From: Deltaproteobacteria bacterium | GTDB taxonomy: Bacteria; Myxococcota_A; Polyangia; HGW-17; SLPX01 | Direction: 5' to 3' | Length of the DNA stretch: 64,000 nucleotides | Assembly: GCA_021162935.1 (NCBI GenBank) | Contig: JAGGXR010000162.1 | Span: 21,159-85,158 of the forward strand | Shown here: positions 9,690 to 11,750 of the stretch, piece by piece | Numbering within the stretch: the stretch's first letter is position 1 | How the letters are laid out: each line of letters opens with the position of its first letter | Notes under the pieces: generated by a model | Seen by the model: the letters and a program-made list of their open reading frames with translations, nothing else | The model's database searches: none | Told to the model about the DNA's origin: nothing | Program-made: the position numbers and the translations under genes

Positions 9690-11750
9690 ATGTACAGCAT
9701 CTTGGTAACCGAGAAGGGCGGTGAGCGAAAGCGACTGGACTTTGAAAAAGCGGAGGTCACCATCGGCCGTATCCAGGGCAACGACGTGCTCCTTCCAAAA
9801 GGCAATGTCTCCAAGAGGCACGCACGTATCCTCCTCAAGGACGGAAAGTTCATCATCGTCGATGCTCGCAGTACGAATGGAACCTATGTCAACGGTCGAA
9901 AGATCACCAGCCCCCTGGTTCTCCAGCCAGCGGACAAGATCTTCATCGGCGATTTCATGCTTCAAGTCGTGCCTCCGGAAAGTGCCCAAGAACAGGCGGC
10001 GCCCAAAGGGCCACCTCCCAGGCGACGCAAAAACGCGCCACCACCACCCCTGGCGAGACCATCGGCCATACCGGCAGACAATGAACAAGAGGTGCTTCCG
10101 CCCTTGAAAAAGCCTGCGGCCGAGGCCCATCCGTCCGCACGACGGCCATCTCGTCGCGGGCGTAGTTCGAGCGAAGCTGCTGCTCGCCACGACGGGCCAG
10201 CAGCGGCTCGCCGTGATGCCATGCCGGCCCCAGGGGGGCACCATGAGGCCCCTGCGGCGGGTCACGCCCGCAAACCACTGCAGAAACCCACTCCAGCAGC
10301 AGCTCCCCAGCCCGAAGAACCAGACGAAGAGGCCATGACCCCGGTCCCGGCAGCTCCCCAAGAGCCAAGACACGCGGTGCCTGCAGCAACCAAGGAGCCA
10401 AAGGCCTCCTCCCAACGTGGCAAACCAACAGCTCAGGCCGAATCCTCACCTCGGCCTTCTGCCACAGATCCCCGCCGACAGAAGTTGGTGCAGGTTCGCA
10501 GCGCGGTCCACGACCGACTCATCCAGGCCATGGATTTGAGACGCCTCGACATGGACAAACTCGCTGATGACGAACTGTGGGAACGTGCTGCATCCACCAT
10601 CGAAGGCATCGTGGGGGACATGGATGCTGCGGGCGAAATTCCCTCGTTCGTGGATCGTCACAGCCTCATCGAGGACGTGCTCAACGAAGCCCTCGGACTG
10701 GGGCCCCTCGAAGAATTCCTCCAAGACGACGGCATCTCTGAAATCATGGTCAACCATGCAGAACAAATTTACGTGGAGCGCAACGGTCGTATCGAACTGA
10801 GCGACAAGACGTTCTCGTCGAACAAGGCGGTGCTTGGAGTCATCGAGCGAATCGTGGCCCCGATCGGACGAAGAATCGATGAATCCTCGCCACTGGTGGA
10901 TGCAAGGCTCAAGGACGGATCCCGGGTCAATGCCATCATTCCGCCTCTTGCACTGAAGGGACCCTCGATCACCATCCGGAAATTCCGGAGGGAAATCCTC
11001 GGCCCGGACCAGTTGGTCGGGTACGGCACGGCGACCACCGGAATGCTGAACTTCCTCAAAATGTGCGTCGAGGCCCGCAAGAACACGATCATCTCCGGTG
11101 GAACCGGTTCCGGAAAGACCACGACCCTCAACATCGTTTCCAATTTCATTCCGAAGGGGGAACGAATCATCACGGTCGAAGATGCAGCGGAACTCCAGAT
11201 CCACCACGAACATTGGATCCAACTCGAAAGTCGTCCTCCCAACATCGAAGGGAAAGGACAGATCGCCATTCGTGACCTGGTTCGCAACTGCCTCAGAATG
11301 CGACCCGATCGGATCATCGTGGGTGAATGCCGCGGAGGGGAAACCCTCGACATGCTCCAGGCCATGAACACCGGCCACGACGGCTCGCTGACCACTGCGC
11401 ATGCCAACAATCCACGAGACACCCTGGCCCGCCTGGAAACCATGGTGCTCATGAGCGGCATGGATCTTCCGATTCGAGCCATTCGGGAACAAATTGCATC
11501 AGCCCTCGACATCATCGTCCACCAAACACGTTTCCCGGACGGGTCGCGCAAGATCACCAACATCACCGAGGTGACCGGCATGGAAGGCGACGTCATCACC
11601 ATGCAGGATATCTTCGTCTTCAAGCAGGAAGGCTTCGACGAAGAAAACCGCGTGTCCGGTCGATTCGTCGCAACGGGATTCATTCCGCGATTCTACGAAG
11701 ATCTGAAGCGACGAGGGATTCCCGTGGACATGAGCATCTTCCGAGAATAG
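9690..11750 (+). CDS. cpaF: FHA domain fused to a CpaF/TadA-type secretion ATPase
   Basis: N-terminal FHA (VTIGRIQGNDVLL...SKRHARI...STNGTYVNG). Pro/Ala-rich linker. C-terminal CpaF/VirB11-type ATPase (Walker A ISGGTGSGKTTTLN; Asp box, Walker B and His box region IIVGECRGGE...TGHDGSLTTAHAN). RBS GGAGG lies 8 nt upstream. Confidence 0.85.
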   Translation: MYSILVTEKGGERKRLDFEKAEVTIGRIQGNDVLLPKGNVSKRHARILLKDGKFIIVDARSTNGTYVNGRKITSPLVLQPADKIFIGDFMLQVVPPESAQEQAAPKGPPPRRRKNAPPPPLARPSAIPADNEQEVLPPLKKPAAEAHPSARRPSRRGRSSSEAAARHDGPAAARRDAMPAPGGHHEAPAAGHARKPLQKPTPAAAPQPEEPDEEAMTPVPAAPQEPRHAVPAATKEPKASSQRGKPTAQAESSPRPSATDPRRQKLVQVRSAVHDRLIQAMDLRRLDMDKLADDELWERAASTIEGIVGDMDAAGEIPSFVDRHSLIEDVLNEALGLGPLEEFLQDDGISEIMVNHAEQIYVERNGRIELSDKTFSSNKAVLGVIERIVAPIGRRIDESSPLVDARLKDGSRVNAIIPPLALKGPSITIRKFRREILGPDQLVGYGTATTGMLNFLKMCVEARKNTIISGGTGSGKTTTLNIVSNFIPKGERIITVEDAAELQIHHEHWIQLESRPPNIEGKGQIAIRDLVRNCLRMRPDRIIVGECRGGETLDMLQAMNTGHDGSLTTAHANNPRDTLARLETMVLMSGMDLPIRAIREQIASALDIIVHQTRFPDGSRKITNITEVTGMEGDVITMQDIFVFKQEGFDEENRVSGRFVATGFIPRFYEDLKRRGIPVDMSIFRE

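Follow-up and report, generated by a model that had tools for sequence, protein, structure and literature searches.

A KilF-type Tad motor ATPase with an N-terminal FHA domain beside kinase, phosphatase and FHA genes in an uncultured member of the Myxococcota

The ATPase gene and its domains

The present analysis deals with a secretion ATPase gene on a 64,000-nt stretch of DNA (the window, positions 21,159 to 85,158 of contig JAGGXR010000162.1, assembly GCA_021162935.1) from an uncultured bacterium deposited as Deltaproteobacteria bacterium. The gene, located at 9690..11750 on the + strand, represents an uninterrupted open reading frame (ORF) of 686 amino acids and encodes a CpaF/TadA-type ATPase, to which an FHA domain is attached via a disordered linker, i.e. 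a protein of the KilF or class III CpaF type. It lies between a secretin gene and a gene for a KilD-like FHA protein. The gene product is identical to GenBank MCD6500098.1, annotated as 'Flp pilus assembly complex ATPase component TadA [Deltaproteobacteria bacterium]', and this sequence is found on contigs of several metagenomes.

An earlier note on this DNA had read the gene as a fusion of an FHA domain, a Pro/Ala linker and a CpaF/TadA ATPase, and this fusion is confirmed by Pfam profiles, matches in the PDB, an AlphaFold2 (AF2) model and Foldseek. The FHA domain comprises residues 1-94 (9690..9971, + strand) with its Pfam core at residues 23-87 (nt 9756-9950), where the complete PF00498 profile is matched (positions 1-67 of 67, E=2e-17, 63.8 bits compared to a cut-off of 20.7). 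The motifs GR, SKRH and STNGT, which had already been named in the note, are located at residues 25-27 (in full IGR), 41-44 and 61-65, respectively. In a sequence search of the PDB, the first 102 residues resemble solved FHA domains with OdhI/GarA at the top (E=3.5e-11), and the Arg, the Ser-x-x-His and the Asn-Gly of the window FHA domain align with the same residues in OdhI/GarA. Moreover, an alignment of 20 homologues, which span 61-89% identity, shows no variation at G26, R27, S41, K42, H44, N63, G64 and T65.

The linker at residues 95-260 (9972..10469, + strand) is rich in Pro, Ala and Arg (22% Pro and 22% Ala) and is regarded as disordered from its composition, its pLDDT values below 50 and its hypervariability among the homologues. 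The remaining residues 261-686 (10470..11747, + strand) form a CpaF-like three-helix bundle, an N-terminal domain and the ATPase domain, as judged from profile, PDB and Foldseek matches. Here, PF00437 (T2SSE) covers residues 335-613 (E=1.8e-61), helices at 261-335 precede the ATPase in the AF2 model and the Pfam annotation, and Walker A (residues 470-478, 11097-11123), Walker B (residues 540-546, 11307-11327) and the His box (residues 561-566, 11370-11387), all on the + strand, are complete and invariant in the 20-homologue alignment. The last 436 residues have the solved Caulobacter crescentus CpaF as best PDB match (E=6.5e-122). The alignment begins at CpaF residue 94, which agrees with the statement of the note that canonical CpaF proteins lack the FHA domain. 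Both proteins share the core of a bifunctional Tad motor (44% identity, CpaF residues 94-490; class II, PDB 8rjf, 8rkd and 9e24), whereas the N-terminal region of the C. crescentus protein is disordered and free of an FHA domain, and that of the window protein consists of a disordered region plus an FHA domain.

The AF2 model, calculated from the 20-sequence alignment, predicts a confident all-beta domain at residues 1-98 (pLDDT 83-91), disorder at residues 99-258 (pLDDT <50) and helices from residue 261 onwards. The ATPase half was modelled with low confidence (pLDDT 30-60) because the alignment is shallow, and therefore the identity to the solved CpaF was used instead for this part. In the Foldseek comparison with the PDB, CpaF came first, followed by GarA, OdhI, EmbR and the Ki67 FHA domain (TM-scores of 0.7-0.9 and rmsd of 1.6-2.5 A over ~95 residues). 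The structural check proposed in the note thus came out in favour of the FHA fold, in general a beta-sandwich of eleven strands, for residues 1-98. The ATPase, the KilD-like protein and two neighbouring genes without assigned family all stay below the cut-offs of the curated NCBIfam models, and therefore no finer family name is given.

The ATG at 9690 is preceded at a distance of 7 nt by the Shine-Dalgarno sequence GGAGG (9678..9682, + strand), as read directly from the DNA, and this site is located 24 nt past the stop codon of the upstream secretin gene. No ribosome-binding site of the GGAGG type was found within 20 nt upstream of five internal Met codons examined (residues 90-288). The same N-terminal Met is present in 20 of 20 aligned homologues, and among the top 120 database matches, 116 have an FHA domain at approximately residues 1-95 in frame with the ATPase, with linkers of 54-238 codons in between. 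Among the homologues, the FHA region is strongly conserved, and the linker is unalignable, varying in length as well as in sequence. Given the ribosome-binding site at the right spacing, the conserved Met and the in-frame homologues, the start at 9690 was upheld and a start codon downstream of the FHA domain, which the note had considered, was rejected.

Relationship to KilF and the Kil-type gene core

The fusion is already known and the window protein is a further, uncultured representative; the novelty implied by the earlier note was wrong, since the architecture has been published for KilF (PMC8460266) and catalogued as class III CpaF (PMC12019362). Seef et al. (2021, eLife) described KilF, the motor of the Tad-like prey-killing machine of Myxococcus, as "itself fused to an N-terminal FHA domain", and MXAN_3107 is annotated as 'FHA domain; P-loop NTPase' in their supplementary table (PMC8460266). 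Furthermore, a study in Nat Commun (2025) sorted the CpaF orthologues into three classes, among which class III shows the layout FHA-IDR-3HB-NTD-CAD and is mostly betaproteobacterial, with E3HIW0 of Achromobacter xylosoxidans as example (PMC12019362). The predicted layout of the window protein, i.e. FHA domain, intrinsically disordered region, three-helix bundle, N-terminal domain and ATPase domain, corresponds to this class, and its domain order is identical to that of E3HIW0, whereas its FHA domain belongs to the KilF type according to profile scores. The betaproteobacterial locus L021 carries a contiguous canonical tad operon (TadG, CpaB, CpaC, CpaF, TadB, TadE) and no KilD-like gene. Regarding the spread of the fusion, PF00498 and PF00437 occur together in essentially all of the best 120 matches, cultured Hyalangium species included, and full-length ORFs with FHA and ATPase parts also exist in Burkholderiales (including the isolate Quisquiliibacterium DSM 29781), Thauera, Halofilum, Lentisphaerota and Sumerlaeota.

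Judging from its sequence, the window ATPase is a KilF orthologue because synteny, identity to KilF, grouping in a tree and the score of its FHA domain all point to this assignment. Its identity to M. xanthus KilF amounts to 74.6% over 355 ungapped residues, with the KilF segment taken from the supermatrix file of the eLife paper, compared to 57.7% for the Bdellovibrio and 54.4% for the Bradymonas sequences. The KilF of Citreicoccus (locus L001), which shows 96.6% identity to its M. xanthus counterpart and served as proxy for it, agrees with the window protein at 71% of the residues in the ATPase region and at 58% in the FHA region. In a rough tree of 81 ATPase domains, built by neighbour joining and without support values, the window protein groups with the KilF proteins of Myxococcaceae, FHA-bearing CpaFs of Burkholderiales and gammaproteobacteria adjoin this group, and the FHA-less Bdellovibrio-type ATPases are placed elsewhere. 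A profile of the KilF-type FHA domain gave ~160 bits on the window protein and on the proteins of L001, L002 and L020, compared to 21-51 bits on FHA-CpaFs of other phyla.

The same tree (relatives L001-L080) provides a side observation on the age of the fusion. FHA-bearing CpaFs of Myxococcota, Burkholderiales, gammaproteobacteria and Lentisphaerota cluster together across phyla, and FHA-less Acidithiobacillus proteins are nested inside this cluster. Because of this pattern, the tree suggests an old FHA-CpaF fusion followed by secondary losses rather than many independent fusions.

The ATPase gene is predicted to be co-transcribed with its two neighbours. Directly upstream and in the same operon lies a KilC/CpaC-like secretin gene (8241..9665, + strand; Pfam domains T2SS-T3SS_pil_N and Secretin), the product of which is 37% identical to the KilC counterpart of Citreicoccus (E=3e-98). 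Directly downstream follows the gene for a KilD-like protein of 725-734 amino acids (11769..13973, + strand; other gene calls start at 11796) with a canonical FHA domain at residues 199-262, a transmembrane helix at residues 290-309 and a helical C-terminal region, which shares 23% identity over 693 residues with Citreicoccus KilD (E=2e-15). In the cultured Citreicoccus (L001, Myxococcaceae) and in a 9-Mb Myxococcaceae genome (L087), the gene order is the same as published for MXAN_3104-3108, namely small FHA protein, prepilin peptidase KilA, secretin KilC, FHA-ATPase KilF and FHA protein KilD, and the secretin, ATPase and KilD-like genes of the window are collinear with L001, L087 and the published MXAN_3106-3108. 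The order secretin-ATPase-KilD is also found in the relatives L084, L085 and L086.

The KilD-like protein deserves some additional remarks. Its N-terminal region is a pseudo-FHA domain: it lines up with the first FHA domain of Citreicoccus KilD, but the GR, SxxH and NG residues are lost. The hydrophobic helix consists of 20 residues (nt 12636-12695), in contrast to the description of KilD as a cytoplasmic protein in the literature, and the predicted topology resembles that of SctD of the type III secretion system (T3SS) or of GltG from gliding motility. Beyond this gene, two conserved genes of 482 and ~384-392 amino acids (14127-15575 and 15591-16769, together 14127..16769, - strand) belong to no Pfam or NCBIfam family. 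Their products are 37% and 36% identical to the corresponding neighbours in L085, and both genes also stand beside the core triplet in L084. They are likely accessory parts of the Kil-type module.

Compared to the M. xanthus system, the window shares the FHA-linker-CpaF architecture and the KilC-KilF-KilD order. The Kil system of M. xanthus is split over two clusters (PMC8460266), and the failure to find platform genes among the larger window ORFs scanned would match such a split. However, there are clear differences. The linker of the window protein is ~166 residues long, basic, Pro/Ala-rich and contains TPVP, whereas the linkers of Myxococcaceae KilF proteins comprise 70-90 residues and are acidic. 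Upstream of the window secretin, there is no gene for the KilA peptidase, Flp or a small FHA protein but a divergent gene for an FHA-sigma54 activator. The KilD-like protein of the window has one canonical FHA domain only. Two family-less genes and a Zn-ribbon-FHA gene accompany the triplet in the clade of the window, unlike in the M. xanthus paradigm, and an operon for a Zn-ribbon-FHA protein, a PP2C phosphatase, an FGE-sulfatase-domain protein, a kinase and a histidine kinase lies close by. Finally, the host of the window is an uncultured metagenome-assembled genome (MAG) of ~59% GC.

Signalling genes around the ATPase gene

The earlier note had pointed to Ser/Thr kinases in the neighbourhood, and this holds true: within ~10 kb of the ATPase gene, two Ser/Thr kinases, one PP2C phosphatase and four other FHA proteins are encoded. 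On the upstream side, a Hanks-type Ser/Thr kinase gene (601..2016, + strand) has a kinase gene at the same relative position in L084. It is followed by a gene for a protein of 1431 amino acids consisting almost entirely of TPR repeats (2114-6409, - strand), which lies between the kinase gene and the gene for an FHA-sigma54 enhancer-binding protein (6521..7909, - strand). The latter is divergent from the secretin operon and conserved in L084. At the position of the TPR protein, L084 encodes a protein of 1625 amino acids, for which no Pfam hit is on record; the two were compared by position only.

A sigma54 promoter ahead of the secretin operon was suspected because of the divergently oriented FHA-sigma54 activator gene. 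No -24/-12 match to TGGCAC-N5-TTGC within 2 mismatches exists in the intergenic region 7910-8240, and across the window the matches to this consensus occur at chance level (71 compared to 67 expected). The idea was dropped.

On the downstream side, five genes on the + strand at 17005..24090 form a tightly packed operon, which encodes a Zn-ribbon-FHA protein (17005-18171), a PP2C phosphatase (18168-19214), an FGE-sulfatase-domain protein (19211-20125), a Zn-ribbon Ser/Thr kinase (20128-21681) and a 7TM hybrid histidine kinase (21688-24090), with 4-nt overlaps at the junctions between the first and second and between the second and third gene. The operon would represent a complete set of writer, eraser and reader linked to a two-component sensor.

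In L084, the order is kinase, giant protein, FHA-sigma54 activator, secretin, ATPase, KilD-like protein, two family-less genes and Zn-ribbon-FHA protein. In more distant relatives (L085, L086), the core triplet is accompanied by genes for a PEGA-kinase, an FHA-PilZ protein and further FHA proteins. Altogether, a kinase gene was found less than 10 kb away in five of five sampled contexts, which are not independent of each other.

Further away in the window, a gene for a FecR-PEGA-TPR protein is situated beside one for an extended ECF-type sigma factor of 378 amino acids (26879-29771, - strand); PEGA domains are also present on the kinases that flank the orthologous loci L085 and L086. Over the 64 kb, the GC skew is negative and the AT skew positive in every 2-kb bin, with a GC content of ~57-64%.

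Possible control of the motor through the FHA domain

The earlier note had proposed that the ATPase is recruited or activated in a phospho-threonine-dependent manner by means of nearby Ser/Thr kinases. This proposal is plausible because the FHA domain has kept its binding residues and the neighbourhood contains kinase genes, a gene for a PP2C phosphatase and several FHA genes. In the corresponding model, a Hanks-type kinase would phosphorylate a Thr residue on a membrane-associated partner, and the FHA domain on its flexible 166-aa linker would read this mark. In this way the ATPase, otherwise diffuse, would be docked or enriched at the platform, and engagement of the hexameric motor would be confined to the place and time of the signal. 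The PP2C phosphatase would remove the phosphate and reset the signal. A Kil-type Tad motor ATPase, orthologous to KilF and controlled by docking of its FHA domain to phospho-threonine, is the interpretation that we favour, albeit with considerable reservation.

The closest precedents are the control of type VI secretion system (T6SS) firing by Fha/PpkA/PppA and the contact-triggered clustering of KilF in M. xanthus. In the latter, NeonGreen-KilF (NG-KilF) is diffuse until contact with prey and forms clusters thereafter (PMC8460266), and the docking model fits this behaviour. The T6SS offers an analogous arrangement with Fha/TagH, PpkA and PppA (PMC3953482): as in the window, an FHA reader, a kinase of the Hanks type and a PP2C phosphatase are encoded beside a secretion machine. 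However, in the T6SS the FHA domain resides on a separate scaffold protein and the machine is unrelated, whereas in the window protein it is fused to the motor ATPase itself. A weak NCBIfam match to TagH (71 bits compared to a cut-off of 120) is due to the FHA domain only. The signalling idea as such was already put forward in the discussion of KilF by analogy with T6SS Fha/PpkA (PMC8460266), and a review from 2025 still speaks of the Kil FHA proteins as 'promising candidates'.

Nevertheless, a number of observations weigh against this interpretation. The literature searched yields no phosphorylation, partner or FHA-dependent phenotype for an FHA domain of the KilF type, and the window comes from an uncultured MAG, with experimental evidence from M. 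xanthus only. Proximity of kinases is weak evidence because Myxococcota genomes encode many Ser/Thr kinases. Moreover, the kinase types differ among the orthologous loci, with PEGA-kinases in L085 and L086 compared to Zn-ribbon kinases in the window, and no kinase is encoded among ten ORFs scanned in a 14-kb stretch, part of the locus of the cultured betaproteobacterial class III CpaF (L021), which belongs to a plain tad operon. In addition, the rest of the machine was not found at this locus. The Pfam scans, which covered the larger ORFs of 0.6-51 kb, revealed no platform protein (TadB/C), CpaB, pilin or prepilin peptidase, and KilA and Flp had no tblastn match in the whole window with the proteins of relatives as queries; the orthologous loci L085, L086 and L087 carry Flp and/or Peptidase_A24 upstream. 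A complete machine has to be assumed, the remaining parts of which would be encoded elsewhere since none of them was found in these searches.

Another possibility is a self-contained switch, in which a Thr residue of the linker is phosphorylated and bound by the FHA domain of the same or of the neighbouring protomer. The first form would mean auto-inhibition as in OdhI/GarA, the second would promote oligomerisation as in Chk2/MDC1. OdhI and GarA, which are the best solved-structure matches of the window FHA domain, act by intramolecular binding of phospho-threonine to the FHA domain, so that such a switch is conceivable here as well. The candidate residue is T217 in the sequence T217-P-V-P220 (10338..10349, + strand), the core of a motif acidic-[AVM][AT]-TPVP that takes the form EEAMTPVP in the window protein. 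This Thr-containing motif is conserved in the otherwise unalignable linker; it is present in 13 of 38 long-linker homologues compared to 0.07 expected from within-linker shuffles, which ignore shared ancestry, and sits at 70-90% of the linker length. It could serve as phospho-acceptor or docking site. However, none of the 78 homologues with short linkers, among them the named proteins of Myxococcaceae and Hyalangium, has the motif, and the linkers of P0045, P0055, P0058 and P0064 contain no Thr at all. Because several homologues are devoid of a linker Thr, the switch cannot be general in the family. Furthermore, T-P-V-P has a Pro at position +3, which is not a typical preference of FHA domains. 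On balance, we regard such a switch as unlikely. Even somewhat less should be staked on its most specific version, according to which T217 in this clade would be phosphorylated by the Zn-ribbon kinase and dephosphorylated by the PP2C phosphatase, with the FHA domain of the own or the adjacent protomer gating assembly or activity of the hexamer. If true, the operon from the Zn-ribbon-FHA gene to the histidine kinase gene would be the missing upstream cascade that triggers the assembly of the Kil-type machine.

Alternatively, the FHA fold might act without any phosphorylation as a structural adaptor similar to SctD/YscD/PrgH of the T3SS and be permanently bound to KilD or to a PrgH-like ring protein. 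Along this line, the window FHA domain also matches the Pfam model Yop-YscD_cpl (E=1.3e-09), MXAN_4649 from the Kil clusters is a PrgH-like FHA protein, and the arrangement of FHA domain, transmembrane helix and periplasmic part predicted for the KilD-like neighbour is reminiscent of SctD. But the canonical FHA model is matched with 63.8 bits compared to 38.6 bits for the YscD model, and the Arg, Ser, His and Asn that contact phospho-threonine are invariant in the 20 homologues. These residues are typically lost in phospho-independent FHA-like domains, as they are in the N-terminal pseudo-FHA region of the KilD-like protein. Constitutive docking therefore appears improbable as well, to about the same degree as the self-contained switch.

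Finally, an annotation artefact with translation starting downstream and the FHA part lying outside the ATPase or being unexpressed is hardly credible, although internal Met codons exist at residues 178, 216 and 281 and the AF2 model has no contact between FHA and ATPase parts, since the strong Shine-Dalgarno sequence stands before the ATG at 9690 and not before those internal Met codons that were examined, the part coding for the FHA domain is constrained (58% identity to Citreicoccus) next to an unalignable linker, the frame stays open across the hypervariable linkers in 116 of the 120 homologues, and KilF with NeonGreen at its N-terminus, expressed from the native M. xanthus locus, is fluorescent and functional (PMC8460266).

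What first looked like a fresh fusion is thus a published architecture (KilF in 2021, class III CpaF in 2025), and the exact protein is deposited in GenBank. The underlying question, how phospho-threonine signalling sets where and when a Tad-type motor engages, has already been recognised. To this question the window adds two leads, both modest, neither of which alters the picture on its own. One is the conserved Thr-containing linker motif in a single clade. The other is the kilC-kilF-kilD core beside a full set of kinase, phosphatase and FHA genes in an uncultured relative, which could suggest candidate regulators of the Kil machine in M. xanthus.

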